From contig CM082595.2 in assembly GCA_040954595.2 (NCBI GenBank), positions 1,201,690 through 1,265,689 on the forward strand: 64,000 nt of DNA, given 5' to 3'. The position numbers were made by a program, and so were the translations under genes. This document shows, one piece after another, positions 2,812 to 64,000 of this stretch. Source of the DNA: Balanoglossus misakiensis (taxonomy: Eukaryota > Animalia > Hemichordata). A model generated the notes under the pieces. The model was given only the letters and a program-made list of their open reading frames with translations. It searched no databases and was not told where the DNA came from. Positions within the stretch are counted from its first letter, which is position 1, and the number at the start of each line of letters is the position of its first letter.

Positions 2812-5800
2812 TCACTTATTTCTAGTCTCGCATGATAATCCATGGTACCCAGATGGACACTCACAGTCTTCAACTAAGACAGCCCTGTCTTGTCCAGTTT
2901 GTTGCGGTACAGCGATATCAAAGGATATATCGCTGATGCTGCAAATAAAAAATAAGAAGAAACTTCTGTCAATCATCTATACGCATGTTCATAGTGACAA
3001 TTAATTAAGTTACATAACTTTATTACTGATTTGAAAACAAATATGAATACAAACCTTGTGAAATCCATCGGTGTTATGTAATATGCCCTTATCAGGAAAG
3101 TGTCGATGTTGGCCAATACTCTCATGAGATCAGGACGACTTACTGGTTCTCGGACGATGATGTCACCACGCCCTCCCTCTTTCAACCAATTAAACTGTAA
3201 ATGCAAATGTCAGAATTGAGATATGATATAATGCAAATATTGACAAGCAAACTGAACAAACTCATGATGTAATTACCTCTCTGAATTCCACAGTTCTTCT
3301 CACTGATGCTCTTAATGTTGGCTGTTGTGCGATGCTATACACCAATGACAAACCACTGCCCTGTGAATATACATGTACATGTACTACAATCAGATTTAGC
3401 GTATTTTAGGGAACAAGACAACGTATAAATGTTGGTTATAATTTGTCACATAAAGGGAGTATATTACGTACCTGTAGAATACAGTCGGGTATATCGTAGT
3501 TCGCTGGAATACCACCATTGTAGTCGTATCTAATAGTGTATTGCAGAGTACCGCCATAGCTAGTCAGCTGTAATTAGAATTCGGAAAATACAGAGTTAAG
3601 AGTTGTGTGTAGAAATGTCTGTAGATCAAGTAAGATTTTGTGTCAGGGATGTATGTATGATACATGTAGCCTCCTACCTGATTACCAAGAAACCTGTTTG
3701 GCAGCATCCAGTAGTAACTCCCCTGCCCGTAGATGTCTGCGAACCGGTTCACGTACAGTTCACCTATTGCCGGATACACCTGCAAGTATCTACTGTCTTC
3801 TGTCCGAATATTAGAAGAGGAATAGCGGTTTACAAGCTGCACTCCTTCCCTGTTGCCACTCTCAGTAAATCGAATCGATTCCTGAAGGAAATAGAAAAGT
3901 CAAGATGTCAGCGTTACGTTTGCTGAAACGTCAAATGACATGCGCAAACATCAGGTTATTTTCTAAATCAAGGGATCAACTATTTACCAGGGACATCAAG
4001 AAGGTGACCTGTGGACTCATACCTGTGTAATGAAGTAACTGCTGCTAACACAATAAGACGCCACACCAAAACAGAAACAATCAACACATTCAGAAGGAGT
4101 TACAGCGTCCGCGTTGAAACGTGTACCAAGACAAACACCATCAGCAGCTACAAGAAAAATAAAATGCAGTCATTAAGAATTTGAACTCAAAAGCGAGGCC
4201 AATAGGGAAAGTTGACCAATCACATGAAGTTGTACTCACGGGTAACTATGACGACGCTGTCGGGTATCGCGAAAACGTTGCCTTTGCTGTTCATAGCCTC
4301 ACAAGTGTAGGCACCAGAATCTTCAGGTCTGGCGTCTGTTATCGTTAAGACGCCTCTGCCGTTGACTGAAGAAGTTGTAACCTGCAAACCACAAACAGAG
4401 AACGTCAACAGTTTCATGATTGGTCTAGTTTTACTATAGGAGAAAATCTTCTAATAATTTCGTTTAATTAGCATGATGTGGTAAACATGTATACGCCAAA
4501 CCACTACTATAAGAAACATCTTTTCAAGTAAGATATAAAACGACGTTACCCTTGGTGGTCCTGGAATATGTCCCCAATTTAATCTCCATGAAATGACAGG
4601 AGTGGGTATCCCTTCTGCTTCACAGATCAGTGTGATGGTTTCACCCTCAGGCACTTGAACCATATCCTCGGGTGGGGTTACAATAACTGGTGGTCCTGTG
4701 ACGTAATCATATCAATCAGTTGAATTAAAGATACACAAAAGAATATTACTCAGAATATCAGTTTCTACAAAGTATCTTAAACAAACTAACCACATCCAAT
4801 TTCATCTGTAAAGTCAAGACAGTCGTCCTGCATATCACACTGATAACTGGCAGGCAAGCACATGTCAGATCGAACACACAGAAACTCCCAGCTTTCACAG
4901 CTACTTCCGGGTAACTTTGGATCTGAAGAGGAACAATCAAAACAGCATTAATATACAAGATAATTCTATACTACGTTTTATATTGATAGGAGCATAATAT
5001 ATCACGTTGCAAAATATCTCAATTCATAAGACAATCACAATGAATAGAGTTTACTTACAACAACGATATTCATCTGAGCCATCACCACAGTCATCCTCGC
5101 CATCACAGACCCAGTTCTTTTGGACGCAGTTTGAATTATAACAGATGAATTCATTGGGTTCACACGGTGGTTCTGTCCCTGCAAATTGACCAATAGCGTT
5201 GTCGGTTACAAATAAGCACTGAATCGTCCACCAGTCAGACCTGCTCTTCTATCCATGACAAGGCAGTTGAAAGACTCGTGTAAACTTACCACAGTTCAAC
5301 TCATCGGAACCGTCTGTACAGTCTGGATCGCCATCACAGAGGAAAGAAATCTTGACACATTCGTCACCGCTTTGGCAGTTGGTTTCGTCCTCTTTGCACT
5401 GCCTGGGTTTGGCTCCTGCATACGATAGTCAACAACAGTGGGCCAAATCAGTTAAAGAATGGGTAAATTTATATTTATTTATTTATTTGATTTATTTATC
5501 CTTCGCTTAGCCTATCTGTTTTGCCGGATGATCTGTGTCAATGACACATATTACGACTTCCGTTGACTTGATTTGAGAGGCACCAAATGTACACCTGTAC
5601 TAGTTTCATAGGAGCATACAGGTGTTGACAACAATATGCAAATTTGTGAGTCATGAATATATTGGTCAGTTGTTTGAAGATCCGTAGAGAAGGACACGTG
5701 AAATGGTAGCCGGCACTAACAGGTAAGATTCAGATATTGCAATTCTTATTTTGAGTCTTATGCTGGTTTGAGTACGTCCTTTTTACAGTACAATCACTCT

Positions 5801-8800
5801 GTCTGTCTGACTGTCTGTCTTTGTCACTGTCTCTGTCTGTCTGTCTCTCTCTCTCTCTCACTTTCATGTCGTTATAATTTTGACAGTGTTCCCTCTGTGC
5901 TTACCACTTTGACTGCACGCCAACGGAATACAGTCAAGTCGACCCTGTTCTAAACCTTCCAGTTCGAACTGAGGTTCAGCATCCGGGTGTCTTTTTAACT
6001 CCACACACAAATATCTGACTTCCTGACATGTCTTGCCCCTCATGTCAATGTTGACCATCAGATCATGGAAAGTTTCCCGAGTGTCCGAGTAGATATCTTG
6101 ATCTTGTTGTGGGTCATTCAAGATATTGGTGGATAGGATGTTCTTGTCTGTGCTGCCGTCGGGTGACGAACTTGTAAATGCTGTCAACTGCCATAAATCG
6201 TCTCCTATGATGTCATCACTGTCAGGTGATGATGTCACGTCAACATTGGGGCGCAAGATGTTTGAACCTTCCTCCTCCGTAATTTCGGGATTAATTATTC
6301 TGATGTCGGTGTCAACTATGACAGCGCGTTTGGGAGCTGAAAAGTACAACATTATCGAAGGGGGTCATGGTCATGTGTTTTTCGGATATGATTGTAAAGG
6401 TTTATTATTTTCCTGACACTTTGAAAAGAAAGCGTTTTGACTTTTAATTACAATATATATGATCGCATTTCTCAAAACTTTCTTGACTGGAAGATTTAAG
6501 TCACCTGACTAAAACTGGAACTATTTGCAGAAGTGGGACTACTTACCCTCTGCACAGGCCAAGGGGACGCAATCACGTTTCACGTCTTCTGGAAGCGCAT
6601 TCATTTCATATTCGGGCACTGCAAAGGGGCCTTTGCCCAACTCCACACAAAAGTAGTGCGTCTCCCTACAATAACGTCCTCTCATGTCAACATTGACCTC
6701 CAGATGTTCAAAGGTCATTGTTCTTCCTCCGTAGAGATCTTGGTCGTCCTGATCAGGTGACAGGACATTCGGGGACACTGTGTGTCTAGAGGTACTGCCA
6801 TCAGATGCATCACTTGTAAATACAGAAAGTTGCCACAGATCGTCACCAGTGATGTCATCACTCAGCTCAGAGGAAGTGACGTCAACGTGAGCACGGATTG
6901 TGTTGTAGTACTCATTTTCCCTGACTGCCGCAGCTCCGACCAATCGTATGGCGGTGTTGATGAGCAAAAGTTGTCTACCTGAAAATAAAAAGGGAAACAG
7001 TTATATATGATGGCGACTTTCAGCATGTTTTAACAATTCCAGGCATAATGTACACGATATTACTATTTCAAATTTCTAACGAAAGACCTAACATTCTAAA
7101 AACTCACTTTCACATGGTGTTTCTTCGCATGCGGTCAATACACGATCATCCGGCTCGGTGCTCAGAGTAAACTTGGGTTTCGGTTTGGACCCTTGTGACA
7201 AAGTAGTGCACAAGTAGGGTACATCGGAGCAGGTTACTCCACTAAAGTCTAAATTGGCCCTGACGGGAGAAAATGAGAGAGCGTGTCCTGGTCGAAGGAT
7301 TTCATTTTGCTGTTCCGGTGTCAACACTTGTTCTACAAAGCCGGTCGATTTCCCCTTGCCATCAGGTCGGGTGTTACCATAGAAACTGAGTTTCCACAAC
7401 TCTTCGCCAGAAATCAAAGTACTGTGAGGAGCTGAGTAAAAGTAAGCATCAAATGTGACTGGATTGAAGGCTGAGTTGTCCTTTATAGTTGTATCTTCTG
7501 ACAAGATCAATCTTCGGTTAGATATAACAGCACCTAGGGATAGAATATAGTGACATGTAGACAATTGTCATTCTCTGCCAAATATTTAAGAAATCTGGCG
7601 ATAATTGTTTTCTTTCAATGAGCTAAGATCGCTAGAAATTCATAAAAACTGTCAAATTTTCCAAAGGAAGAAAGAAAGAAAATGAAGAAGATGACGAGGA
7701 TGATGACGACAACAACAACTCACCTTGACAATTCAATGGAACGCATGTGGTAGACGCTCCCTCAGGTTCAACAGTAAACGTAAACTCAGGTTCTGCTTTA
7801 GGAGACTTGAACAACTGCGCACAGAGGTAATTAGTCTGCGCACATATAGTTCCCGTAGTATTGAGATTGAACTTGATGCGTCGGAAGACCAGAGGAGAGT
7901 TGTTGATCAGATTGGTGTTCACCTGGTTACCGTTCAACACCTGGTTGTCCAATGACCTCATTTTACCTCTCCCACTCAGACTCTTACTGGCCCACACAGA
8001 AAGCTTCCATAGTCGCTCTCCTCTGATTTCGTCGCTCGAGGGATCATAGGGCGCGGTGAAATCAAAAGTGACTTTGTTATTGTCTTGGTTCTCGGTCACT
8101 TTTGTATCTTCGTCCAGTTCAATAACAGCGTCAGTTATTATGACCTCTGCAAAAGGGAAACAAAAGTCATATAATTCAAGTAAAGAAGAGGTTCTTCTGT
8201 CGATTGTCAAGACGTGTCGTTGTGTTGATTAGAAACTAGTGAAGATGATAACCAGACTGTCAGATATACTTAATATTAAGATAAACATTTTGGATCACGA
8301 GGCGATAACTGGTATGTGGTCTGCATTTGGTTTCACAGTGTATGGTTACCTCACCTGGAAGATCATCCGGACAATAGGCACAACATTTGCCAGGTGGTCT
8401 GATTGGGTTGCTGCATTGGGGAAACATACAAGAGACTGTTGTACAGATGGTTGTGCTGTTATCACACTTGCAGGCTGAACATTCATTCTCGTCGAATTCG
8501 TCGCCATGTTTGTAATGGCGTCCTAAATAAACGCAAGGCAGTTTATCTGAAGAAGTAAGAAATGAGAAAGAGACGACGTATCGGTCAGACACATATGGTG
8601 ACGGCTGCGCCTCTATAGGCAAAATGCTCCCCAAATATAAAATTCGTGTGTTGTAAATGGCATCCCTTCCCCCTTTCCCGCAAAGCCTCATATGAAGTTC
8701 AACGTGTGCGTTGCCTAATTTACGAGCTAGTGTCGTTATGCCCAGAATGAGACTGTTGGTTTCTTGTTTCTCAATGACGAACTTACAGGCATATATCAAT

Positions 8801-10561
8801 TTTCTTGTCAGTACTGTTTGACAGAGGGTTACTGGGGTCAAATTGTACGCTTACTGTTCCACAGTCTGTATACTATAATGTTTTTCTTACAGAGTCTAAA
8901 TAAATCTAAATATTAGTTTCTTGGTATCCCGTAAACTATTGGATAAACTGTTATGGTATAGTGCACGCCGGGAAAGCTCAAATGGGAGCTAAACGGTTGT
9001 TATGGTGACAGTTTCCTTGGCTCATTAATCACGCCAAGGTTTGATGAATCAAGCTGACAACAGCTAGGTCGTGCATGTTAACAGACGACTGACCATTGAC
9101 CTCGGGTATTTGGGGAAACAGGTCTGCCTGTCTTCCTGCCGGGTTTTCCTTTCTTCAGTGTTTTTATGGAGCGAAGGAAAACATCACACAACAAGAATAG
9201 TTTGAAAGCGAAGTTAGCAGATGGAGGGTTGACATTCCAAGCCGTGCCACGTTAATCAGTTTCAGATTTGTCCGAAACAAGCTGAAGGGGTCTGCCAAAA
9301 ATTGATGTCAAGTCATGGAAAGTTGTTAGAAGAGAAAAGCGTTCTTCAACGTCACAGAGTCATGTCACTCTTAATGTGAAAGTTTGACCCAAAATCATCT
9401 TTGAAAGTCGTCCATGGCTCAGATAGACGAAAGTTTGACTCGTCAAGAAACTTTCCGGTTTTCATACTCTTTCAGTGAGCTGTGTAATTATTTCTGACAA
9501 GGACAACGTGGGAGTATAGTTTACCATGCAACCTTCAAATAGTAATTTATCACCAGGGACCTGCACAGTGTGTATATACATGTAACAAAGTTCAGCTTTT
9601 AGACGGATATCATGTAGTCGCAGGATCACCCCTAAGGGGATAACCATAGCATATCCAGGAGAGAGGGGTAGATCATGTAGATGGTTTAGAAATTATTAAC
9701 TGCGGTATGAGCCTGGAAGACAGAGAACAAGCGGTTTCTGTACCCTCTCCCGTATATGAAATGGTTCGCCCCTTACATTATGACATCTACTGACACTGTT
9801 TGGCTTTGCCTCCTGATTGATAGTGTTATGGACAGAAGAGGGTTAAGGGTTCTACACTTAGATAAGGTGATGAGGGATTGTTACCATCGAAATTTTAAGT
9901 GATAGGAAAACTGTGTTAAAATGATGCGTCTCTGTACTCAGTAGTGGCCAATTTCTCCACCCATAGCTCAGTTAACCCTTTCTCCACCGTGGTTTAGTCC
10001 AAACCCATTGTTTTCTATGGTAAGGTTAGATCTCTAAAGGGGGAAACTGGGGGTGTAAGGGTTAATAATGGAAGCAAATCAGGGATACATTTAAGGTCAA
10101 GTGGCCAACTGATTGACTCTGTGGGATCCTTGGACTAACAATGTACTGCACTTTGGACGTAACCTTGAGGTCCTATAAGAAACTTTTGTCCTTCAAATCT
10201 ACACGACTGCGTACATTTGAAGGATTTTTTTCCATTTATAAGTTTGTTCCCACCCTCTGCAAATTTAGGGCAACAAGGCCTGTTATCCCAATTTTATAGA
10301 TTTTCATATCGTCCATAATCGAATAACATTTGCAATGGCATTACACACAATTACATTTTAAATTGAAGTATTTTACTTACCGCAATGCTCTTCGTCTGAT
10401 CTGTCATCACAATCCACTCTGCGATCACATCTTCTGTAAGTATCAATGCAGGGTCCGTCATGACACTGAAATTGCCACGGATAACATTGAGACTCCACCG
10501 ATCCGACAAAAACTACCAGGGCAATGAGGGCAAACAGCCCCACTCTCCAAACTGTAGTCAT
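2812..10561 (-). CDS. Truncated perlecan-like secreted protein ('mini-perlecan'), 17 exons, about 1175 aa: SP-LDLa-VWC-4x unknown module-3xLDLa-Ig-laminin EGF/laminin B(IV)
   Basis: Exons (minus strand): 10381-10561, 8355-8546, 7724-8146, 7108-7533, 6547-6978, 5905-6336, 5290-5415, 5059-5178, 4791-4922, 4550-4695, 4240-4381, 4023-4147, 3678-3881, 3472-3567, 3277-3360, 3055-3194, 2812-2938. They sum to 3528 nt with GT-AG boundaries and no internal stop. Perlecan hallmarks include [48 protein letters not shown] and [16 protein letters not shown]. Confidence 0.85.
5797..5860 (+). repeat. (CTGT)n/(CT)n microsatellite, intronic
   Basis: Seen directly; a similar (CTGT)n run lies at about 296-318. 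Confidence 0.7.
5905..8146 (-). CDS. Four tandem single-exon copies of an unrecognised ~140-aa extracellular module (exons 7724-8146, 7108-7533, 6547-6978, 5905-6336)
   Basis: Four ORFs share I.G..LW.L....(S/N)...(D/S)G, (V/I)L...Q, N(L/V/I)(D/N)..G..C....Y(L/F)C..L, P.(F/Y) and a terminal C....C. Exon lengths are 423/426/432/432 nt, all phase 1-1. Confidence 0.85.
8355..8546 (-). CDS. Mini-perlecan exon 2: von Willebrand factor type C (VWC/chordin-like CR) domain
   Basis: [14 protein letters not shown]...CSACKC....ICTTVSC...C.......GKCCAYC has the 10-Cys VWC pattern with CxxCxC and CCxxC; 192-nt phase 1-1 exon. Confidence 0.85.
9972..10065 (+). mobile_element. ~90-bp piggyBac-type MITE, full copy
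   Basis: TTAA-CCCTTTCTCC...GGTGTAAGGG-TTAA; internal sequence shared with the other copies in the window. Confidence 0.75.
10381..10561 (-). CDS. Mini-perlecan exon 1: signal peptide plus LDL-receptor class A repeat
   Basis: [25 protein letters not shown] (hydrophobic leader), then [35 protein letters not shown]; phase-1 GTAAG donor. Confidence 0.85.
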
Positions 10562-12992: not shown

Positions 12993-13091
12993 ATGGCGAC
13001 CCCAAGGAATTCCTCTTCATTGACGATTATGTGGTGGACTTGTCTGTTGTTACTGGTCGTGGTTTGTCAGCTTGGACAGGCCGCCAAGTTG
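12993..13091 (+). CDS. HSPG2: Perlecan exon 1, signal peptide
   Basis: [33 protein letters not shown] followed by GTAAGT; phase 0 matches exon 2 starting at 29102. Confidence 0.75.
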
Positions 13092-16000
13092 GTAAGTGTA
13101 CATTTGCAGCGTGGAGTTGGCGGAAGCAACTTTAAGCCCGCCAGCGCCATGGCTGCTATCATCTTTGTTGGTTAGCGGTTCATTAAGCAATATTTCAGGA
13201 ACCCTCTGATAGTTCTAACTGGGTCCCAGCAGTCAATAAACCTGTGACTGACTTAGTGCACTCATATGCACTTTGCCGACTTGTCCAGAGTCTTTCACCT
13301 CCGCACCGCCTGGACGTACTATGAAGCACACCCAAGACGCGCCTTTGCGTTGCCATGGTTTCGAAAAAAGTGGTATACCCTGCATTGATTGTACATCAAC
13401 AAATTTGGTTGTTTGAAAACTTATTGGAGTCATTTATTTGTGGCTTTACTTCAATTGTTCATTTTCTTTTATATTTTCGTCCTGTTTTGCTTTACATAAC
13501 TGTTGAATTGTCAACGAACAATGTTGTAAGTGCCAAAGCACAAGCTGAACACAGTGTAAAATCGTTTTGTCATTTTAAAGAACTTCAGTTTTATTTATGA
13601 AACCCACATGGCCTCATGTCCTGTGTGTTTATTGTTGTTTCATAATATAGGTGTACTCCAACCTTTACTCAGTCTGCTCATTGTCCTGTGTTCAGAAAGT
13701 AGTGTTCCTGTCATAAATTGTCGGGCTTTGTATAGACTGTTTGTCTGTAGACAATTCTGCATGTCTGCTGTCTTGGCGTAGAGGTACCACATGGATTTCG
13801 ATGGATCACACCAGATTTGGTCAAACCATGGATAAGATTTCTTTGGTGAAATATACATGATTTGTTAATGAAATGAAACGTATATTGTTTTAATTGTTTA
13901 TCTTAGGTGACACCACTTGGCACATTGCCAACTGTTTAAAGTAAAACAAACTAGAAGGCACTGGATGTATTGTCTTTTAGATTTATTGTACAGGAAGCCA
14001 GACAAATATTCAGTTGACCTTTTCCTGTTGTACTGTTATTGTAATTAATTCAACTGAAGATAGTGCCCCCTCCACTTTGTGATGCTAAAGAATTTGTATC
14101 CTAGACCCTTAAAAAAGTTCATTTTGGGACATCCCTAGTCAACAAACAGTCATACCATATTTATTGCACTTATGGTGTGAATAATAACCAATCCTCAACA
14201 TGGTAATATTCTTTGGTGTCACAGTTTGCACTGAAAAGTGGCTGGAAAGTTTCCTTTCAGACTGTGACTTCAGAGAATTACTGTAAAACGGGTTATTTTC
14301 GCGATGTCAAAAGAGGCAACTGTTACGCGAGGATGAATTTTCGCGCTCTCGTATTTCACTAACTGCATCGTTATCCCTGAAAAACATTTTACGTGACCTT
14401 TTATTTTCACGTTTTTTTGCTCTTGCGTATTTCGCGAACATTTATTGCTTGCGAAAATAACCCGTTTTACAGTACTTCCTAATTGTAACAAAATAGTACC
14501 AAATCATTTTTGTGACAAGTGATGGGATGGCTCATAAAATTCCTTGAGTCTATAGCAGCCACTTTAAGATTACTGGCTATGTGGGCTCTAATCTGTAAGA
14601 TAGTTTTCTAGACTAAGCATTCTTTCCAAACATACAGTTCATTTTAGGACATCTCTGGCCAACAAACAGTCATATCATAACTGCAAACGTCAACAAATGT
14701 TGTTTTTTTTGTATCACAAAGAATGGGGCTTCTGTCTGCTCTACTGGATTGAAGCACTGTGCCAATATTCCAGTTAACAGTTTTAAGGAATTAGCCAAGT
14801 CTAAAAGCCTGATTTCAAAGCATTGTGGAACTGTTTCAATTGTGATTAATTACCCTCCAATTTGCACATAAAAAGAAGGTAGGTGTAAGCAGTGAATGAG
14901 CCCAGACAGTAGTGAATAGACAATTGTCTTAGAAACTTTAGAGTGTTTGAATAGGGTGTAGTTTACGCCAATCTGTTCTTTTGTTTTTACCCACTGGAGG
15001 TGGCTTTATCTGGCTGCTGCACATCCATTTATTCACTTGATAAATATTGTGTAAATGCCTTGAAAATCTTCTTTGTCGGCAACAGTATTATCCCTTTCAC
15101 CACAATGGTTTAACCCAAATCCATTGTTTTCTATGGTAAGATTGGACCTATAAAGAGGCAACTGGGGGTGAAAGGGTACTGGGTCTATTGTTAAGATTCA
15201 CTTGGTGGAATAAATGCTGAGGATTTGAAACACGAGTGTCTGATGCTGGATAATACCACTGATTAACCGAGGTTTTAACTCCAGAGATCCTTTTGAATAA
15301 CAGTGGGTAAGAGTCACTTATGTCAGTATTGAGATGGGAAAAGTCTGGTTAGGGGAGAACCAGTTATTTCTAGGGAGGGGAAAAGTCTGGTTAAGGGAGA
15401 ACCAGTTATTTCCAGGGGGGGTGGAAGATTTAAAAAAATAATAAAAATTGTTGGCATATGGAAGACTTAAAAAAATAATAAAAATTGTTGGCATATGGTG
15501 CAGAGGAATAAATGGTATCATGTATAAGGGTGTTTCTATGGTTACACAGGATGTAGGCTTGCTAGACTTCCGTAGCCCCGCCTTTTCCCTTCTGCACAAA
15601 GTGGTCCGGAAAACTTGCGGACTGTGGTGTGAACTCTAGTGACTTTAACCCTTTCACCACGATGGTTTGGTCCAAAGCCATTGTTTCCCATGGTTAAATT
15701 GGACCTGAAAAGGAGAAATGGGGGTGAAAAGGGTTAACCATGTCCTGTTGGTTTCAACCACAGACTGCAGACATTGAGTGATAAACGCCATGTGCAAAAA
15801 GCATGCATTGACCATGGAGAGGTCTCTATGCTCGAGAGATTCTCAGTGAAGAGACTTGCATTCATTACATTGCAATGGAAACTGGCTTCCTGCTTCTGTC
15901 ATAGATGTTTATAATCACAGAGTTGACAAGCTGAGTTCTGCAAAGGAGTTATAAAAAGTTCTGTTGGCTGGTCTGATATGACTTGTGCAGGAAGGAAATC

Positions 16001-19000
16001 AGAGAGTGGATTATCCGATTATTTTATGATGTACTTGATCAAGTGCAGTGGTTGTACAAGTTTTATTGCAAGATAAGCAGGTCACCAGGTCAATGTATAT
16101 TTGCATAAGTATTGTACTGATACGGCCATAGTGATAAAAAATATAGTTTCATGGATTATTTTGGCACAGAAAGAGACAGGGAGTGAAATTCATGTTCTTT
16201 TTCCTGATGGGTGAAATTCCACAGTACTTTCATTATGGTGAATGCCTGGATAATGCAGTAGAACAGAATCAAACAGAATACATTGTTAATTTTCAGTTGA
16301 ATTAAAAATAAATGAAAATTTCAAAGTAGGAAAAAGTGGAAATGACAATTTGGAGGGACAATATTGGACATAGCTCTACGAATGCAACAGGTCAAAGAGG
16401 GAAATATTGGATTATGTATAGTGACTGCTGTGGTAATATGCTTGTTTTGACAATAGCAGCTTGATTGTCCTAACTTGATTAATAAATATTATGAGCCATT
16501 GAAACTCATAATTACTGAAGACACAATGGTTCTTGTAAATCACAGTATTGTAGTACTTTGTAAAAATGTTGATACGAATTGTTTGAGCTTTGTGATTTCT
16601 GCCACTTTGACGTCAGAAACACAGTTTTGAAACATCCACAATGGAATTTCGAAAATGAATGACATAACACAAGATTTAATAGAGACATGACATAACAGAC
16701 ATCTTTACATATACATCTCTGGTGGGTTTTTATTTGTTGGCCAAGCTCTGTAGGCTTGGAGAAGTGTGATTAAATACAATGTGTACTTTTGTTTGCTATG
16801 TTTATTGTATAAAATACAAGAGCTGGATTTCAGGTTCTAATTACAATAATATATTTTTACAAAGTGGAAATGGTATGATTAAATTATTTTGTGTTTAAAA
16901 AACGCAAAATAATAACTTTCATGTTATGAATTAGTTACTGAACAACTTTTAAATGAGTTGACAGAGGTTGTACTGTGTAATATAATGCCTGGCTACAGTC
17001 TCACCCTGACTTGTCTTGCTTCATGTCTGAATTTCACCAGCCTTGCGTGTATAACCTCCAAGTTTCTATGTGTTACCTACCTGACCGTAGAAAACAATGT
17101 CTTTGTATTAATGGTTGCTGGATTGTTATGGAAGGAGCATTAAAATGTCGGGGGTTGGTTGTTGTGGCAATTAAATGAAAAAGTGTAGACAGATCTGTGG
17201 GGGGTTATTTGATACTTTGGAGGTGCTTGGCTGCGTCCGGAGTCTTGAGTCCGGAAAGGTGCCACTGCCGGATCGTGTGTCCTAGTTCTTACACATTGGA
17301 AATGCTTGGCTGAAAGTCTTACATGTTTGGGGTTAGTTCCGCTATACATTAGTGTTAAAGGTCCATTAGTGCCAAGGTTTATTTTCACCTTCATTGTTTT
17401 GTGTGTCAACTGCAGTTTCTTGTTTGAATCACCATAGTGCAGTCGATATTGTGTACATGTACACTTGGCATTGTCAAAAATTGCATTTCAAGTGCAGACT
17501 TGATTTCATTTGTCAGGTTCTTATGAAAAATATATCTATAGTGTTCTCCCCAGGAATTTCTGATGTAATATTGGCTTATATGCATAATAATACAATTCAT
17601 TGTTATAATAATGAGTTATTGTTTTGTTTAATTGAAGATCACCAGCCAATACTCTTTACTTGCTCTGGGAAGGATGTTGTTACGACGCACATGTACATGT
17701 ATGTTTATTGTCAGGCAGTCCTGGTGTGTTGGACGGCCCTGTGTCTGTTATCTGTCAACTGTGGAATATGCAAATTGACACATGGAGAAGTACGTGTTGT
17801 GTTTTGTTAACAGGTCAAAGGGTTGAACAAGAGTAAAATTTTAAGAGCACATATATTATAATGGAGGTGGCCAATTTCTGGTGTTTTGTGTTTCTGAAAT
17901 ATCTGAATTGTTGGCCTGTAGCTGCTCTCTGAAATTATTCCAAGCATATGGGTCAACAGAGGTGTGTGTGGAATGGAATTTTATTGGTTTTGACAAGGTT
18001 AGGCAGTGATTTCATTGTTTCTTATTTGGAGCTTTGCTTGCTTTGGGTGGGGGATTACTAGTATCTGACTTATATAAAATTTCTGGGTACGGGTTGATGT
18101 CTGCATCATAGACAGAACCAAACTTTTCTGCTTAGTTGTAAAAATGGTTTAAAAATGATGAATTATGAATATTGATGATTATACCAGTAAAATGTATTTA
18201 TTTAATTGAACAGTAAAGTCGCGCAATATTTCAAGACTGCCCGTGCTCAACTTATCATCACTTAATAGAGCAGCAATGTTTTATTATACTTGGTAACTAG
18301 AGCAAGAATGTCATATGCTGCTAGTTAGCTTGTCTTCGATATTAATGACATGTATAGTTTAGCAGAATGTTTGCTATTCTCATCAGTAATATGTTGACAC
18401 AAGTGGCCCATATAGTCTTACACTCATTAATTTAGGCCCTTGGTAACTTCTGAAATATGTACTATCTAGATGAAACACCAGTAGTCAGTGATTGAGGAAT
18501 ACAGCAGAGAACTGTGTTTTACAGAAGTCAGTTGGGAAATACAACACATTTTCATGGAATATTACTGAAAGATAGAGATATTAATGAAGGGAATAGTGTA
18601 TTTTACTGGCAACTTATCCGTATGTAACACTATCACAAATTCCGTTGACCTCAACAGATATTCCCTTAGAAGTGGACGCTTATCATATTTGAGATTTTTG
18701 ATAGTATATTTTGGAACAGACTCTGTGTTTCTAAATTTGGCCTAGTTGCATCTGGCCTCATTCCCTCATTTGTCGACTAGGAGTGGGACAATTTCCGGTT
18801 TAGGAAGAAGAATTAAAAAAACTGCGTTTTGAAATTTCATGGTCAAAGAAGGTAGCACAGTTGAAAGTTTCCTTTGAAGGAAAGATGTGATCATCTTTAG
18901 GTATATATACAAGTACACCACACATGTGTGTCTGATTATAATTTGAATTTGTGTGGTCATTTACAGCTACATGTATCGGCATATCAGCGAATAAAAAGGT

Positions 19001-22000
19001 CACATCCACCAGTGTGTGGTGCATTCCTGAAAAATCCAAGACTGACACTTATCGCTGCGTGGTAATCTTTTGAAAGTAGCAATCAAATTCAGATACTGTA
19101 AAAGTTACAGTTGGGTGGAAAGTTGAGTGTGTAAGATATCTCAAATCAGTCACAAGGAATTAATCTAGGGCTGTAATGTCACCCAGGATGATCACTAATT
19201 AGTTTGCTTAGGGTATGTATTTTGTTCAATTAATTAATTGTCATTAAACTACTGTGCAGATATTGATAGAGTATATAACCATGACAATATCAATTTACCC
19301 TTGCAGTTTACCAGGATAACATACAGAGTGTGTGTGTCATTTGAAATGTTCCAAGCTACTGAATGTGAAAGGGGAATGTGGAAGTGACGTATTACGCTCA
19401 AACTGGAACTTCGGGGTCGATTCTGACCAAGTGAAAACAGCCCAAAATTCACCAAAGTCACGGCATAAGGTCACGATGTGATAACGTTGAGGTTAATGGG
19501 AAATAGTCGCCACATTTTGGGTGTCAGTCCGAGGTGCCTGTTGCCAAGGACATTTACCAGAAGTGGCCATTATTTTCCTGTTGTCCTTCTCGTACTTGTA
19601 TTAAACTTACAATACCCAGGAATCATTTACAGCAAGCCTGTAATATATATAACAATAATAATATGGTATATATGTATTGTCGTAATATTTGATGTATTGT
19701 CTCAAATTTAATACATCTTCTCAAAGATTGGTGATGTGAATGTCTAAAACAAACCAGTGCAGAAACTTTGAGCTCCACAATTCATTAACACAATGTAGTA
19801 CAATGGAATGACACCCTAGCCTCTATGGGTCATGTTTAGATATAAATAGTGTAATTTTGCCGTAAACATCGCCAAGTGAGTGGAGTCTAGCCTTCATCAG
19901 TTTAGGCTGGTTATGTTTGTTGACATAATTTGTAATCAATCTACGATTGGGTCCGATTGGGTCCGTAAGGCTACATACATCAATAATGCAAGATATTAGA
20001 TTTACTGGTTGTGTCTATGTATTAATGGCAGGGTTTGTTTTTAGAGCAATAAACATCAAGTGACCTCAGCTTAGGTATAAGACTCCTCATTGTATCATTT
20101 TTAGCCGGTTGTTGAACTAGCGAAGTGTCCTTTCTTCCAGCTGCTATGACCTGCAATTCTGACAGGTTTCCTTGAAAATTAACGTCTCCCAGTTTTCTGA
20201 GCATTTATTTCTTGCTCTTCGTAGTTAACCATTGTTTTGGACGTTATTATGTGCTGTGATTGAGAGTACAAAGAACGTGTGGACAATTAAACTTCGCTGT
20301 CGATTTGGTTTCTAACTACAGTTACGAAAGTTACCTGGCTTTCTCAGTGTTTTTTTCTGTTTCAAGTTGGAATCATCTGGACAATGGTGATGTCCTTCGT
20401 ATTGTCACATTCAATAATATAACGTGAATGCATGCTTAATTGCTCTCATAAATACTTCAATAATAATAGCATTCTAGTGGCTTAATTTAATGAGTGGATT
20501 AGCACAATAGTGAACAATTTAAATTGGTCTTTATGTGGGTCATTTAGAGAAGGACAAAAGCCCCTGGGATATGGGACCAGTTCTGGGCAGTTACTGTAAT
20601 GGTCTTGACTTGGATCTCGTCATTTGAATGTCAAATGCATTCTTTCAGACGGTATACTCTTTAATCTTTACGACTTCCACTGAATAATCAGGTCTAACTG
20701 TCATGCTAATTTTTGTTTTTACCAGGGACTGGAAATGAACTAGACACTGAAAATCTGTGTTGTTCGAAAAGCTGCTGCATTGATGAGACTAAGTTGCTGA
20801 TTTTCTTGAAATCCTATCCCAGGTAGTCTCGTATCTGGCACGTTTTGTCCGCCCTGCTTCCAAAAAGCAGACAAAATACGACTAGAGATAGAGTCTACCT
20901 AAAATAAAATCATGATTTGTAAAGGTTAATGTCTGTACAACCATGGACATACCACTTTGTACATCCATGGTAAACTATGTACAGACATCCATGGTAAAAC
21001 TATGTATTGGTATCTCAAAATATTATCTGGCCAGTACTTATGATTTGATTGCAGGGCTGTGTCCTGACGTGAACAGTGAAGTTGTCTACTGACAAAAATA
21101 ACACAGCCACACATTTGGAAATCAAATGAACCATTGCGATATCATCGAGCAGCAACTTTTACATATGTGTCCATTCACAGGGTTCGTGTGAAGCATAGAG
21201 TTCATGCTGTCCATTGGAAAGCATTTGTGATACATCAAGGGCTTTTAGATATAGCTATTGCCCTGAGGGTATTGTGGTGTACTGTGGAGTTTAATTTCAA
21301 GTTGCTTAGCCAGTTATAATTGAAGTTACCAGTGTGTGTAGAGTACTATTCGAATCAAAGATTGTGTTTGTTAATTTTGAAGGCTTTGTTCAGAAACCCA
21401 TTTTGTAAATCACATGGTTCAGTTGGATTGGCCGACTCTAGCAGTCAAGGTACAGTGGGTCTTTGTGAATTAAGTCTCTGCCTCAATGAGCATAGCTTGG
21501 CCAACCGTGACGCTCTTGGGGTCGTACTGGTGTGGTCCCTGTACTCTTATGTAACCATGGACACCCAGTGTCATTGAAGAGGCCATTTTGTAACACTGTG
21601 CTGTCAGTGAGATTCATGATTTACTCTTGCAGACACTCCAACCGTAGACCCTGGAGTGTGGCATGTGGAGAGTTGCCAGCTAGTCTAGTATCGAGCCGTA
21701 TTTTGTCTGCTTTGCTTCCAAAACTAGCAGAGAATACAATTGGTCCTCTCAACCAATATTGCAAACTTGATACTCAAAGATTCTCTTGTGATGTTTGCAA
21801 ACCTTTCTTACCACACAACATTACTGAACTGATGTCAAGAAATTAGTAAAACTTTGCAAACTGATGCAGAATTTAAATAAATGTATAAATGATCACTGAC
21901 TTTCTTCTGTCATTACTAGTCTTGTAGAGTACAGGGTCACATTTTATGTTATGTTTATACCATTCTACAATGTTCGCATTTGGAATGATTACTTTTGAGC

Positions 22001-25000
22001 CATTCCGGCAGACTACTTGTCTGTGAGTCTCTGCATGTTTCAAATCCATGTTGAATTCTTCAGACAGTTACGGCATTCATCTGAAGATTTATGATACATG
22101 TGTTTTCAGTAAGGCATTCATACAGCTGTCAAACAAATATCTTGTAGCAGACTGTCTTGTGACTGGCACGTACATGGAAGTGTTGTGGCCAGTGTGCCCT
22201 CTAACAAAACTAATTTTTTGAAAATTGGAGTCAATTTGAGGATTTCTAAAAATTTCTCTAAGTCAACCCTATACCTTTACATGTAGTGTGGATATTCTTG
22301 AGTCACCAGTGAGTTTGTTGAGTCAGTGGCGCGTCATGTGGGCTTATAGAGCATACTGGTAGTGGCCATTGATGCAATGGTTAGTGGACATTTCTCGAAG
22401 TTTCCACTGGTTGATGTTTGATCAGACATTGTCACTGTCAGAGTCATTGATGTCTGTGGTTTTGCCAGAATCATATGAAGTTACCCTTCGAAATATTTTA
22501 TGGTATATAAAATTATTGGACAACAGTGAGTAATTATCAAATAAAATCATCTGTTCTAGAGCAAAGATTAGACAAACTGTGTTGTCAGTTTGTTGCTTTT
22601 TGAACTCGGTGACATTTTATGAGCACTTTGTCTGCTCTGAACGCATACTGATAAATTATCACTGCAATGGCTGAGTTTCAAGGCCTTTGTGGTCCCTGGA
22701 TCAAAGTTGTCAAATATCGATTCGTTCCACAGACTGTTGTGTCACAAAGAGGAGGAAAGGTAATAAGGTGAAGCAATCTGATTAAAATTCGATATAGGGA
22801 TTAACCAGACCAAGCAAGTGAACAACCTTGACTACCGGTATATAGCACATATTTCTTGTCACTCACCATTCCCATAAATAACTAGTAATGACCAGAACTT
22901 CAACCTTTATTTCTAGATTTAATAACAGTCCTTGCTGTTGAGGTCACCTTCATTTCATTTGGCGCATCATGGTGTCGTTTTTTGACCATCAAAATTCAAT
23001 GTTTATTTTATACTTGGGCAAAGTTGTTAAGGTTTGACGTACATGTATGTACAGCCAGATGAACATGCAAGATTTCTGCACCCAGGTGGCTAGGTTACAT
23101 CCTGGTGTGTGTGTGGGTGTGTGTGTACCGGTACATGACTGTCCGGTATCTGCCCAACTGAATAAGCAGATTCAACTATGTACTTGGAGACTGGTGGTAT
23201 TTTTATTTTTCAACAGCAACGAAGCATTCTTAGTTCACAACCGCAAAAGTGGAAAGTTCAGCAAAAGACTGAAATCGATCAACGTAACTCAGAATAGTAA
23301 ATTAGTAAATTATCAGTAAATGATGTACACAGTACTTTATAAGTTGATTTAACATTACACATTCCATGTGTGTTTAGATCCATGTTTAAAATTGACTGCT
23401 AAATATCACTCTATCAAATTAAACTGTAAATAAACACATTGTTACACTCAATATATTGGCATATCTCCTTTTAAATTATGAGACGAAAATCAATCTCTTT
23501 TTAATGTCAGGTACATTGTACGTGACTGCATATACAGTTACGTTGTCATGGAAATGGCCTGTGGTCTATAACATTTGATAAGAACATACTGAAATCGTGG
23601 TGAGGAGGTCGTATATTTACCTAAGGTTATAGGGTTAAGAGTAACCGTTTCCATTATGCAAATTATAGATAACTTTTGAACAATCCATAACATTCTCCTA
23701 AAGTCAAGGTTTAGCAATATTATTTTGGTCAAGTCTGATGTATTGTTACTCGTAATGGCTTTTCCTGACATCACAGTTTGCCTTGAAACCTTTCACCACC
23801 ATGGTTTGGTCCAAATGTATTATTTTCTATGGTAAAGTTGGACCACTACACTGGAACTCCAACAGACATGTGTACTGGTACATGCTTGCATACATGTGTA
23901 CATTGTCTGTAATGGCGTAAATATCACCAGTTTCACGTGGCAACACTTAGCGAACCGGAAAATTTATGAAAATTGATGGGAACACAATAATGTATAGCAT
24001 CATGCATGTCAACCAGTAAATGTTTGGTCTTATGTTGTTGAGGTACCCATGTATAAGAATTCACTCTGGGTGTTCTCTCATACTGAGTGAGCCTAAATTG
24101 AAAGGTTTACATAAATAATCAAATCTGCAATCATACATACAGAATTAGCTGATAATTAAATTAATGAGCTGTTAAATATGTGTTTGTTGTTCTAAGTCCA
24201 GCGAAGTTTTCTCGGTTTCAGCTGACTGTGTTCAGTCTATACCTTGTTACAGATTCATCTAGTGTCCATCAATGTGGTTGAATTTTTTTCTGCAAATAAT
24301 TAAAATAAAAGATGTTTGAAATCCTGTGAGTCTTTGCAAATGGTCAGATTTAATACAAATGGTCTTCTCGTACTCCACACATATTCCAGACATGGTTGTG
24401 TTAATCACAGTCCCTCTGTATTGAAAGCTAAAGAGACTATTGCCATCTGACTTGACAATCTCAAGCGTTCATAAGCTCTGCTTGCAGTGTTCCTCTAGTG
24501 GCATACATAATGTTTTGTATACTTGATGACAGTATACATACCATTGTAACAGCTGTAGGCAGACAGGCATTACAGCAGTCGCCTTTTTCCCATCTGGATG
24601 AAATCCAGTTTAAGTCTGTTGGACTTACAATGTGTGGTCATAACAAGAAACTTCAGTTGCTATACTGTAGTACACACCAAAAAACCTGAGCAAACTTTCA
24701 CAGGTTTCATCAGTGGCCCTTTTATAAATCAGTCTTGATTTATGTCGGCATACTCAGTTGGCTGGATTGCCTCTTGTCATTGTGTAACCTTTTTATACAA
24801 ATACGCTTTGATTTAATGTAAGGGTTTGGTGATTTCTTTGAAATGAAGGACCTGATTAGTGTGGTGGGGTGAAGGTTATGTTTTGCTGGGGCCAGACAGA
24901 CGGTCATAAAAGGTATTGAGGTGCTTTACACTGCATTGCACTGCGTACAACACATCATTGTACGCTGAAAATATGGACTGATTTATAAGGACCAGCATTT

Positions 25001-28000
25001 GCCATAGTTTATCACAGTCAACAGATTTTACCTTCGTCTGGCACAGAAATAGGGTAGATAGGTAGGAAAATAATTTTGGGGGCCGGTTTTTGTATTCCAG
25101 TTTAACCCTTTCACCGCCGTTATTTGGTCTAAATCCATTGCTTCGTATGATAAAAATCGACTTCTGGTTAAGCTGTACTGAGCTACCACACACTGCATAC
25201 ACTAAGATACCACTGCTACACAGCTTAGCAGACGTACGTGTCTCATGTCCGACATTCCGATTGGATAATTTCAACCTTGACCAGCTAGATTAGCTTTCAC
25301 AGTGAACACCGCAAATCACAAGTGAACATGAAAGTATTTGCCAAAGGATTTCTTGGGACACCCAGCTCGGACACCCAGCGGCAAACATGCATGTGTGGTG
25401 ATACGAGTATATGTGTCCTTGAATGAGGTTCTTCCAATAGGATTACCTGACTTTGTATATATAAATGTTGGGCTCGGAGAGTACAGGGATTTGTGAATTC
25501 GTATCAATTGGCAATTCCAGAAAAATCTGGTCCGGCTGTTTCTCAGTGAAAGACACCGGTTCAAACTGCCTAGCTGAGCGCAAGTTTAAAGCACTTTAAA
25601 AGTTGTTGTAGAAGAATTCTTCAAGCTTAACTTCATCCGAAAAGAGCAGTGGGGTTGACCAGGAAAATCTGTTTAGAAAGTGTAAATCATTAAAATAGCC
25701 GAGTGCATGGTTGATTAATGGTTGAGACTTCAGGGTGATGATGTTGATGGTCATCGGTTTTCATCTCTTTATACTTCTCTTAGTTCAACAGATGACCTGT
25801 ACTTGTACTGAAGCTATCTCTACGGAGTATGGAGTGTTTTGGCATCCAAATTAGTACAGGGAGCGGGTCTTGCAAGATACAGCATACATGTGCAGTAGAC
25901 AAGACTGACCTCTGACAGAGAGAGTTGGCTTTTAACGTTTATTGCAGTGAAATTACTTCATCATTAGATCAATGTATGGAGTCAACAGAAACATCCATTG
26001 TAACAAGCATTGCAATTCCCGGCATTTCAGGATCAATTGATTGTAACCTTGACAACCGACTATTCATGTTCTGTTTCCCATGGGATCACTCGGACTGTGT
26101 CTTTATTGTAAGGCCAAAGGAAGAAAATTCTTTGTTTTGCGTCCACTCAAAATTCATTTTACGTCACCACATGTTCATTCGCTGTAATATGACCACATGA
26201 AGAAGCATATATTCCTGCAATGTGAATGTCTTGTCGAATTTTTGTGACGAAATATTGTCCATGAGTGAAATTTATCAAGAAAACTTTGTGTGTCTTTTTC
26301 TCTAAAACATACGAGCTTGTGGACGCAAAACAAAGAATTGACTTACTTTGGCCTAAGTAGGCAGGAGTATGAATCCAAGAGACGACCAATCAGGTTCAAT
26401 TACCAGCATGCTTCGGTGTCATGTGGTCAAGGTACCGCTGTGTGTTCTTTGTCGGGAATTCCGAGGAGGAAAACAGAGGCGGCTTTATTGAGAACTGTGT
26501 CAAAGTTACGGTGCAATGATTACAATTCAAGTTCACTTGTTATTGAACAATTCTTCACATTACATCGCCACGTCTGCTTGTGTTGTCAAGATGCATGTAC
26601 TGAGTGTGTGAGCACCAAAAAAGAAAAAAAAAACTAACTTCCAGTCAGGACACGTGTGTGAACTTTTAATGATAACCAGGTTCACCGTTTGGAATGCTTG
26701 TATGTTGATGGTAGACACAGTCCTCATGGAAATTGATTGTTATGTCAATAAAATTAGTCGGATGTTGGTATAAATTGAATAGTTTCTAAGGATGGAGTTT
26801 GTTTATGTTCTGTTTCAACTTTGCTGTGTTAAATCTCAACATTCCTTGGCAAATTGGAAAAATAACAAGCGGCCGTTTGCATGAATAACCCTAGGATGAT
26901 TCATTGCCTGTGTTCTCTGTGGATTTTGAAGTCCAACCTCACGATGCATTGAAAACAGTGCCAAGTCTGATCATGAAAGGGAATACTGGTCATGGGAATT
27001 ACTTTGCTCAGGTCATGCTCAGTCCAAGTCCATTTTGTCTGAAGATGATTGGCAACATTTTCATGGTCATTATCAGTCAAACTTGTCTTAGTGGCCACCT
27101 CTATATAGTGGGCACCTTTATATAGTGGCCACTTTGTTACAGTCCCTGTGCAATTACATACATGTACATCAATTGACCTGTCTATAAAGGCCAACTGTCC
27201 ATAAAGGCCAGTTTTGGAAAGTCCCTTGACTGGCCACTATAGACAGGTTTGACTGTACTAATTATTGGCCTGTACACATAGTACCAGTCTGAGTATACAC
27301 TCCATATGCATGTACGTGTGCACTCATGCAAATCTGACTATAGGAGACATTACATCAGTGGTCAAACATTTTCCCGGGTACTTCACAGAACTCAGTGTTC
27401 AGGTATCTGGTGACTGTAGGTGTAAAGGAATTCCATACAGGGTTTGGGGGACCAAGTGAACCTCGGATTCCAATCTTGAGGAAAGGAATATAATGCTTCC
27501 ATTGAATATGCCGGAATTCTGCGTGCCGGAATTACCTTTAAGTTTTCTTGCATTGCCAGGAACTACTAGTATTTTGAATCCTTGGTGACTCATATTATAT
27601 ATATATAAACTTAGAGAGCACACTGTTGTACAGCCAAACTTATTTACACCAGGCAAACTTTGACCCAATGCACTGGTATAAATCTAGCTATAGGCAGACT
27701 CTGGTTAAGCAAGAGTAGCAGTCTGTCATACGTAAATGAAAATGAGATTATTACACTCTCTTTTTCTGAAAATGTCCATCGTCTGACTAACATATTGAAA
27801 TAGTGAAGAAAAATGATGAAATGTTGTACCACATCTTGATAGAGAAAATGTGGCACTGACTCTAAAGGTTAACCTTGCAAGGACCAGCAGTTTCAGTCAT
27901 GTCATATATCTGTACTTGGCCTTGTCATAGAACAGAATCACTACTTTCGTCTGACGTATAGAATGCCAGGTCACATTAAATTTCAACAAACTTCAGCACA

Positions 28001-63143: not shown

Positions 63144-63891
63144 TCAGAGTGCGAAATCCAAGTACGACAAATGTCTTATTGCCTTGTATTGATTTGGAAT
63201 GTCCATCAATGTGTGCACGGCTAATGTTGTTTCTGGTTTCTCAGCATGTGACATGACGGCGTGGAAATTCACAAAGTGGAAGTTTTCAAATTTCCTGCGG
63301 GGAAGATCTTCAATGAAGCTGCCGACCATATCCCATGGTCCATCACCAACACCAACCACAATGATTGACAGGGGATATTTAGAAGCTTCTTTAATGGCAG
63401 ACTTGGTTGCCCTCTCAGACGTCACATGACCATCGGCTATTATGACGAGTATGTGATACTGTGAAATGAAAAGATAAAAAGAATTACATGTATGGAATGG
63501 TATGTGATTTTTATGAAAACAAGATTGTGAACACCCTATTTCTTTTTTCATTTTCAAAAAGACTTCTTAGAACTCTGTGAAATATGTTTGTAAGATGCAA
63601 ATGTACTACTGTAAAGGGATGCATTTATAGGAAAACACTTACTGCTTTGGTTGTTTTGACGATATCAATGGCTTGTTTAATGATTGGAGCATAGTTTGTT
63701 GGTCCACTGAGTCTAACTGATGCTGTAACTTCTTTGTACGTCTGCAGAACATCCTGGAACCCAAAGCATGAGGCGTTCACTTTGAAAGGAAACACTCTCT
63801 TATCCCGAGTGGAACTATCACCAAAACCGAAGACTGGAATCAATCCATCTTCATCAAATGGAGCCAAGGTTTCACCTAGGATAGAAATAAC
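63144..63891 (-). CDS. Atypical copine / RGLG-CPNA-type vWA domain protein, last two exons (63643-63891, 63144-63458), 5'-incomplete
   Basis: [17 protein letters not shown]...[15 protein letters not shown]...[12 protein letters not shown]...[18 protein letters not shown]...R.F.NF.FVNF...[11 protein letters not shown] matches the copine A domain, with the GDGPWD variant typical of RGLG/CPNA proteins. Confidence 0.85.
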
Positions 63892-64000
63892 CTAAAAGAA
63901 ACAGACAATGTTATAGGTTGTCTATTTTTGTAAGTCATCATTTGTTGCTAGCAATTTCTACTGGTTCTATAATCATTCAATTCTTTGCTATATTAAAGTG

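Follow-up and report, generated by a model that had tools for sequence, protein, structure and literature searches.

Perlecan (HSPG2/Trol/UNC-52) is presented in the accessible part of PMC3308698 as one gene of a conserved basement-membrane toolkit, and exon shuffling is treated there as common. Its scaffold contacts lie mostly in domains IV and V, according to the parts available of PMC6266596 and PMC10381214. The former also states that domain I is missing from some invertebrate perlecans. SURF modules belong to a different kind of matrix protein: they are four-cysteine modules located with a VWC domain on one side and the minor triple helix of some sea-urchin chains on the other (PMC2852846). 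The accessible text of PMC10817530 places them in the N-propeptides of the 2-alpha and 5-alpha collagens and in fibrosurfin, describes SURF-bearing molecules on, between and around fibrils, and suggests a role in mutable tissue. Regenerating arms of brittle stars express fibrosurfin, and positive selection acts on a fibrosurfin-like gene (PMC11959729 / PMC5521101, parts available). Here we describe a gene from the acorn worm Balanoglossus misakiensis, found in a stretch of 64,000 nucleotides (GenBank assembly GCA_040954595.2, contig CM082595.2, positions 1,201,690 to 1,265,689 of the forward strand; hereafter the window). Judged from its sequence, this hybrid gene is very probably a chimera of two parents, a VWC-SURF gene and the domain II-III core of perlecan.

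The hybrid gene was rebuilt from the window sequence and occupies 10561-2812 on the minus strand in 17 exons. All introns are of the GT-AG type (16/16), and the reading frame of 3528 nt yields 1175 aa with the terminal stop as its sole stop, as expected from the intact gene proposed in an initial annotation. The product consists of a signal peptide, an LDLa, a VWC, four modules of ~142 aa, three LDLa, an Ig and one laminin-B unit, in that order. Pfam, run on 15 of the exons, recognised the annotated LDLa (exons 1, 7, 8 and 9) and VWC (exon 2) domains, as well as Ig (exons 10-11) and a portion of laminin B (exon 16); no Pfam family scored above the cut-off in the four long module exons. The product has one hydrophobic stretch, at the N-terminus, and no second, which supports the earlier view that it is likely secreted.

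The gene is not confined to Balanoglossus. A profile search with the four modules returned two long proteins among 7989 scored candidates, both predicted and named uncharacterised: XP_070560394 of Ptychodera flava (1178 aa, four modules, 66% identity over 1175 aa) and XP_077998512 of Glandiceps talaboti (1615 aa, seven modules against four). Both orthologs share the layout of the product described above, module number aside, and their sequences end a few residues past the same motif. Signal peptide aside, the identity per domain is 61-72% for Ptychodera and 44-68% for Glandiceps. Each ortholog is on the same contig as the perlecan of its own species, as seen from the equal contig sizes (47,284,028 and 19,391,087). 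Accession order, the only proxy for genomic position and one from which strand is not visible, is consecutive in Ptychodera (perlecan 390, 391 and 393, hybrid gene 394), and the Glandiceps accessions are 85 apart. No ortholog from Saccoglossus or echinoderms appeared in word-limited searches or among the best 150 of 445 module matches.

The two halves meet at intron 6, between exons 6 and 7. Exons 2-9 all start in phase 1, which allows VWC/SURF exons to be joined to perlecan exons. Three AATAAA motifs within an AT-rich run of this intron would fit another model, in which gene prediction wrongly joined a VWC-SURF gene to a separate perlecan fragment or pseudogene. We consider this highly improbable: the intron measures 489 nt, has matching phase-1 ends and contains no hydrophobic start exon, exons 7-17 lack a signal peptide, their frame is open and their sequence conserved, and the RefSeq models of the two other species make the same join. 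A pseudogene reading was rejected.

The perlecan origin of the second half is evident from the exon structure. Exons 7-17 match eleven perlecan exons one for one, with sizes (hybrid/perlecan, in nt) of 126/147, 120/120, 132/132, 146/146, 142/142, 125/125, 204/201, 96/93, 84/84 and 140/143, and a last exon of 127 nt including the stop against 112 nt in perlecan. Incoming phases are identical throughout (1,1,1,1,0,1,0,0,0,0,2). The proteins have clearly diverged (269 of 475 residues identical by BLASTP, 57%) and nine of ten intron pairs align no better than shuffles, the intron 14 score being reached by 1 of 200 shuffles. In these respects the initial annotation, which had listed the exon match, the diverged proteins and the unalignable introns, proved accurate. 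Across 471 aligned codons the identity is 66, 73 and 38% at codon positions 1, 2 and 3, and at four-fold sites (n = 98) it is 33% against 26% expected from composition. With a pN of 0.295 (dN 0.375) and a pS of 0.79, which is beyond correction, synonymous sites are saturated and therefore yield no dN/dS value against perlecan. The low pN with saturated pS shows an old copy whose protein sequence is under constraint. Together with the conserved orthologs and the tree below, this upholds the proposal of an old partial perlecan duplication under purifying selection as far as the C-terminal half is concerned. A recent duplication or ongoing conversion was rejected, given that the orthologs are 64-71% identical to each other against 55-62% to any perlecan.

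We built a core tree of 22 cores, one or two per lineage, taken from 216 listed matches with the remainder left out. The three hybrids form a clade (100/100) that is sister to the window, Ptychodera and Glandiceps perlecans (99/98), and all hemichordate rows group together (100/99), apart from two echinoderm perlecans. By this placement the duplication postdates the echinoderm split and predates the split between Ptychodera and Glandiceps. The Saccoglossus perlecan, whose model is partial, is placed outside (93/84), but its grouping with the other perlecans is not rejected (p-AU 0.154). The stem branch is longer for the hybrids than for the perlecans (0.31 vs 0.14). Later divergence is only slightly faster in the hybrid, with core identities to the Ptychodera counterpart of 70.6% against 75.3% for perlecan.

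Compared with perlecan itself, the hybrid retains domain II (LDLa repeats and one Ig), and its three LDLa, Ig and first laminin-EGF/L4 are collinear with those of perlecan and have the same intron phases. Its core is 55-62% identical to enteropneust perlecans and nested in the hemichordate perlecan clade. Unlike perlecan, it has no SEA/glycan domain I, one of the three L4 units (laminin B) of domain III and no domain IV or V, while it does have VWC and SURF-type modules and an extra cysteine in L4. The stop is placed three residues past the point where perlecan has a splice donor, and no further perlecan-like exon was found below 2812 on the minus strand; the exon model and this search confirm the annotated lack of domain I, most of III and all of IV and V. 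Because domains I, complete III, IV and V are missing, the hybrid is perlecan-derived but not a perlecan. It is a separate gene, unlike the short UNC-52 forms, which are isoforms (PMC6266596, part available), and unlike the Trichoplax case, where one perlecan is split in two (PMC4398486, part available).

Further features of the core concern glycanation and cysteines. No SEA match was obtained in the two orthologs or in the window exons scanned, and no acidic-flanked Ser-Gly site is common to the three orthologs; Ptychodera perlecan has an acidic-flanked Ser-Gly cluster near its N-terminus. The hybrid protein is thus probably free of heparan sulfate, in line with the non-glycanated product suggested at first. 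It contains 61 cysteines. Counting by domain with pairing rules that we take to hold here, every cysteine pairs except residue 1056 in laminin-B. This residue is a cysteine in all three hybrids, and in the 167 best alignments the column reads V 131, I 17, gap 9, F 4, C 3, L 2 and A 1; of the three C, two come from the orthologs and one from a misaligned match. Cys 1056 may be a buried substitution or may form a cross-link. The perlecan fragments 9I5A and 9I5B in the PDB span the same L4 region. An RGD at residue 1095 (exon 16, 3194-3055, laminin-B) is present in the Ptychodera ortholog and reads RSD in Glandiceps; it was dropped as a candidate since Glandiceps does not keep it.

The first half points to a parent of its own. 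The best alignment of residues 62-694 is to Ptychodera P0098, which comprises a signal, a VWC and five modules (43% over 635 aa); Saccoglossus P0251 comes second. Two proteins of this kind, XP_070535949 of Ptychodera and XP_077864287 of Saccoglossus, have VWC and modules collinear with the hybrid, but they have no LDLa and no perlecan core; moreover, the Saccoglossus protein has Sushi repeats and the Ptychodera protein is on another contig (40,130,686 bp). In a tree of 40 modules from 8 proteins, hybrid modules 1 and 2 group by position with those of the VWC-SURF proteins (98/95 and 100/98), and module 3 of Glandiceps groups with module 3 of Saccoglossus (97/81). Outside the hybrids the two halves are found apart: modules occur in two of the 219 proteins from the core searches and their clusters, which are the two orthologs, and the perlecan core occurs in none of 166 module-bearing proteins. 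The proposal of a partial perlecan duplication therefore holds for the C-terminal half and missed that the N-terminal half has its own parent, the hemichordate VWC-SURF family.

The origin of the first LDLa is less clear, as it has no consistent best match among the perlecan repeats across the three orthologs. This bears on a different route to the same gene, in which the perlecan copy extended further 5', domain I was lost from it, an early LDLa was retained and the VWC-SURF exons arrived by insertion in domain II, so that the first LDLa would be perlecan-derived. The site in domain II does hold other domains (FN3 in four hemichordate perlecans, a SUEL exon in the window, eight thyroglobulin repeats in amphioxus), and the two donor-family proteins have no LDLa ahead of VWC. 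Besides lacking a consistent perlecan match, however, the first LDLa shares its exon with the signal peptide, which is not so in perlecan, and we regard the insertion route as unlikely. The two-parent chimera formed at intron 6 is preferred.

The initial annotation called the four modules novel, and this is not the case. Four invariant cysteines are found in each of the four modules, and all 15 modules of the three orthologs follow G-x2-LW-x11-G-x42-C-x6-C-x2-hydrophobic-x21..23-C-x4-C, a spacing that presumably agrees with the published SURF consensus. An exhaustive profile search gave 445 module representatives at E up to 0.001. Among the 150 matches listed, the host was a hemichordate or echinoderm in all 18 that were looked up, and none of these 18 was named 2-alpha collagen, 5-alpha collagen or fibrosurfin. 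A link to collagen is P0100, a fibrillar collagen of Acanthaster with VWC, seven modules, triple helix and COLFI (profile E 8e-160): hybrid module 2 matches all seven of its modules, the best at 32% identity and E 4e-26. The modules are likewise homologous to those of a Diadema protein composed of EGF, module, EGF and avidin. In the hybrid the module series directly follows the VWC, as it does in some sea-urchin chains (PMC2852846). Taken together, the modules belong to a large ambulacrarian family and, on sequence grounds, are very probably SURF modules.

The hybrid nevertheless differs from the described carriers, having neither the triple helix nor the COLFI of a fibrillar collagen and no EGF arrays. 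In fibrosurfin EGF arrays flank the SURF modules, a layout that is seen in P0252. Furthermore, unlike the sea-urchin SURF proteins, the hybrid is found in hemichordates and is joined to a perlecan core. Partners in the 37 module proteins scanned include VWC, Sushi, HYR, Kazal, FN3, tyrosine phosphatase, tyrosine kinase and adhesion-GPCR domains. SURF-type modules were observed in receptor-type tyrosine phosphatases, a tyrosine kinase and adhesion GPCRs (P0097, P0104, P0106, P0144, P0146 and P0152), and a receptor-type tyrosine phosphatase of a crinoid has 31 of them in 5459 aa.

An AlphaFold2 model of the module from an alignment of 91 sequences (pLDDT 97, pTM 0.89) is nearly all beta, and the fold is predicted with high confidence to be an Ig-like beta-sandwich; it supersedes a poor single-sequence fold (pLDDT 56). 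Foldseek gave best TM-scores of at most 0.50, and the structural neighbours start at Z 9.0 (rmsd 3.3, 110 aligned, Spo0M) and 8.0, followed by many beta-sandwiches at 6-8. Such modest scores to assorted Ig-like sandwiches indicate the fold class only and no function. A protein atlas search gave no usable match. The coordinates of both genes are collected in Table 1.

Table 1. Parts of the hybrid gene and of its perlecan parent in the window, with the evidence for each.
Feature	Position	Strand	Evidence
Exon 1: signal peptide and first LDLa	10381..10561	-	Pfam; hydrophobic N-terminus
Exon 2: VWC, phase 1-1	8355..8546	-	Pfam PF00093 E 7e-11; best relatives VWC-SURF proteins
Exon 3: SURF-type module 1, phase 1-1	7724..8146	-	Cysteine spacing, module tree
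Exon 4: SURF-type module 2, phase 1-1	7108..7533	-	32% identity, E 4e-26, module of Acanthaster collagen P0100
Exon 5: SURF-type module 3, phase 1-1	6547..6978	-	Predicted Ig-like beta-sandwich
Exon 6: SURF-type module 4, phase 1-1; final exon upstream of perlecan-derived part	5905..6336	-	
Exons 7-9: three LDLa	5415-5290, 5178-5059, 4922-4791	-	Paralogous to perlecan exons 34490-35272
Exons 10-11: Ig	4695-4550, 4381-4240	-	Paralogous to perlecan domain II Ig
Exons 12-17: partial laminin-EGF, laminin-B (L4), closing half-EGF	4147..2812	-	
Exons 12-17, single exons	4147-4023, 3881-3678, 3567-3472, 3360-3277, 3194-3055, 2938-2812	-	
Eleven perlecan exons, parent of hybrid exons 7-17	34490..37592	+	Exon-by-exon match
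Full-length perlecan gene, divergent neighbour and parent	12993..61625	+	First exon; TBLASTN with Ptychodera perlecan

The hybrid gene and perlecan are arranged head-to-head, as annotated: the perlecan ATG at 12993 (+) is 2432 bp from that of the hybrid gene on the minus strand, and the genes are divergent. The CpG ratio is raised over much of the interval between the two ATGs, with a dip near 11000-11500. Bidirectional-promoter pairs are defined by start sites within about 1 kb and by co-regulation. TBLASTN with Ptychodera perlecan covers 29129-61622 of the window.

Several observations were made along the way in perlecan itself. Its domain II has an in-frame 291-nt phase 1-1 exon at 34017-34307 (+) that encodes a SUEL (galactose/rhamnose-binding) lectin (Pfam E 1.5e-22), with no SUEL match in the longest Ptychodera or Glandiceps perlecan models. 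The same domain has an FN3 exon (~33073-33366, +), found in the perlecans of Saccoglossus, Ptychodera and Glandiceps too. Because no FN3 is listed for the Ptychodera perlecan isoform X2, which is shorter by 97 aa, this exon is likely to be a cassette. P0045 of Branchiostoma belcheri, a perlecan N-terminal fragment named Nidogen-2 at the source, has eight thyroglobulin repeats between the first and second LDLa, and thus the same perlecan region takes insertions in amphioxus. As similar truncated genes, P0045 and the catfish protein P0040 were rejected, for both look like ordinary perlecan N-terminal fragments. P0069 of Labeo rohita is a complement factor I model with a perlecan-like LDLa-Ig block, either a mis-prediction or another perlecan-fragment hybrid. 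Elsewhere in the window we noted a convergent TRIM-like neighbour with B-box and FN3 domains (377-1930, +), a Copine-domain gene convergent on the perlecan 3' end (63147-63900, -), a C-rich tandem repeat inside a perlecan intron (~60000-60280, +) and, in intron 1 of the hybrid gene (~9971-10065), a dispersed repeat of ~95 bp with several window copies at 75-85% identity.

The following scenario would account for these results. At an early stage of enteropneust evolution that precedes the split of Ptychodera from Glandiceps, the 11 perlecan exons would have been copied locally in inverted orientation, and a phase-1 intron would have connected this copy with VWC and SURF exons of phase 1-1. Past the first laminin-B unit the splice donor would have been lost so that a stop follows, and the expected disulfide pairs of the half-EGF would stay complete. 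The predicted protein is a rod of four to seven Ig-like SURF modules behind LDLa-VWC, ending in the LDLa-Ig-L4 head of perlecan. By analogy with the sea-urchin SURF N-propeptides and fibrosurfin, its VWC-SURF end might lie on or between collagen fibrils or with other SURF proteins, whereas the perlecan head might retain protein-ligand binding without glycan chains or the anchors of domains IV-V. A role as linker from basal lamina or cell surfaces to the collagenous matrix is a reading by analogy, and we place it slightly on the doubtful side. As an overall explanation, a two-parent acorn-worm gene for a secreted, probably heparan-sulfate-free linker is the best we can offer, and we hold it with as much belief as doubt.

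A number of points weigh against this explanation. Basement-membrane anchoring is doubtful because the known scaffold contacts are located in domains IV and V, and the hybrid has neither. The modules may be generic spacers, uninformative about collagen, because they are also present in receptor phosphatases, a receptor kinase and adhesion GPCRs. The closest N-terminal parent is a non-collagen VWC-SURF protein, and fibrosurfin is itself 'of unknown function' in the accessible text of PMC10817530. The AATAAA motifs in intron 6 could yield a SURF-only product. Finally, the timing signals conflict: the core tree (93/84) places the duplication after the Saccoglossus split without rejecting the alternative (p-AU 0.154), and an earlier split from the donor is indicated by modules 1-2 and not by modules 3-4.

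The main functional rival keeps the two-parent origin but makes the protein a diffusible growth-factor binder or decoy. VWC, LDLa and L4 would bind ligands of the BMP, Wnt or FGF type, the SURF rod would act as spacer, and the anchor-free protein would compete with perlecan. Some VWC domains do bind BMP. The hybrid keeps the ligand-linked parts of perlecan (in the available part of PMC6266596, Wnt and LDL are speculative ligands of domain II and FGF-18 is reported to bind domain III), domains IV-V are missing, and the module number varies from 4 to 7 in a spacer-like manner. Yet the modules are about as conserved towards Ptychodera as the perlecan core (61-72% vs 69-72%), beyond what a pure spacer needs, and a decoy seems possible though rather improbable. 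Quite unlikely is a component of external mucus or surface defence rather than of structural matrix. The protein is secreted and modular, and PMC4729200, in the part available, stresses expanded secreted glycoproteins for hemichordate muco-ciliary feeding; the exons scanned, however, contain no mucin-type low-complexity region or lectin domain, and both parents are matrix-type proteins.

The linker reading can be taken further, to a dedicated bridge between basement membrane and collagen under shared control with perlecan, with a new free-cysteine cross-link and with SURF as an Ig-like domain for fibril binding, present throughout Ambulacraria and older than the mutable collagenous tissue of echinoderms. 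We consider this extension improbable. If true, the compact hybrid gene would be the simplest handle on SURF function.

No description of the hybrid gene was found in the literature, in a search outside of which subscription papers and supplements fall. In the parts available, PMC4398486 does not contain 'paralog' or 'duplicat-' and the main text of PMC4729200 does not mention perlecan. Overall, the hybrid gene is real and conserved, apparently undescribed, and combines known parts in a new domain arrangement. Among matrix genes exon shuffling is in itself ordinary, and SURF-type modules turn out to occur widely across hemichordates and echinoderms, where many receptor and matrix proteins carry them; the module family, which has no Pfam model, could be defined from the 445 matches. 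The hybrid links perlecan to SURF modules, which in the literature found are described only from sea urchins. A rebuilt perlecan paralog retained in at least three acorn worms is an undescribed exception to the one-gene toolkit, and would provide a clear case of exon shuffling in which both parents are still visible and which opens a test of SURF function.

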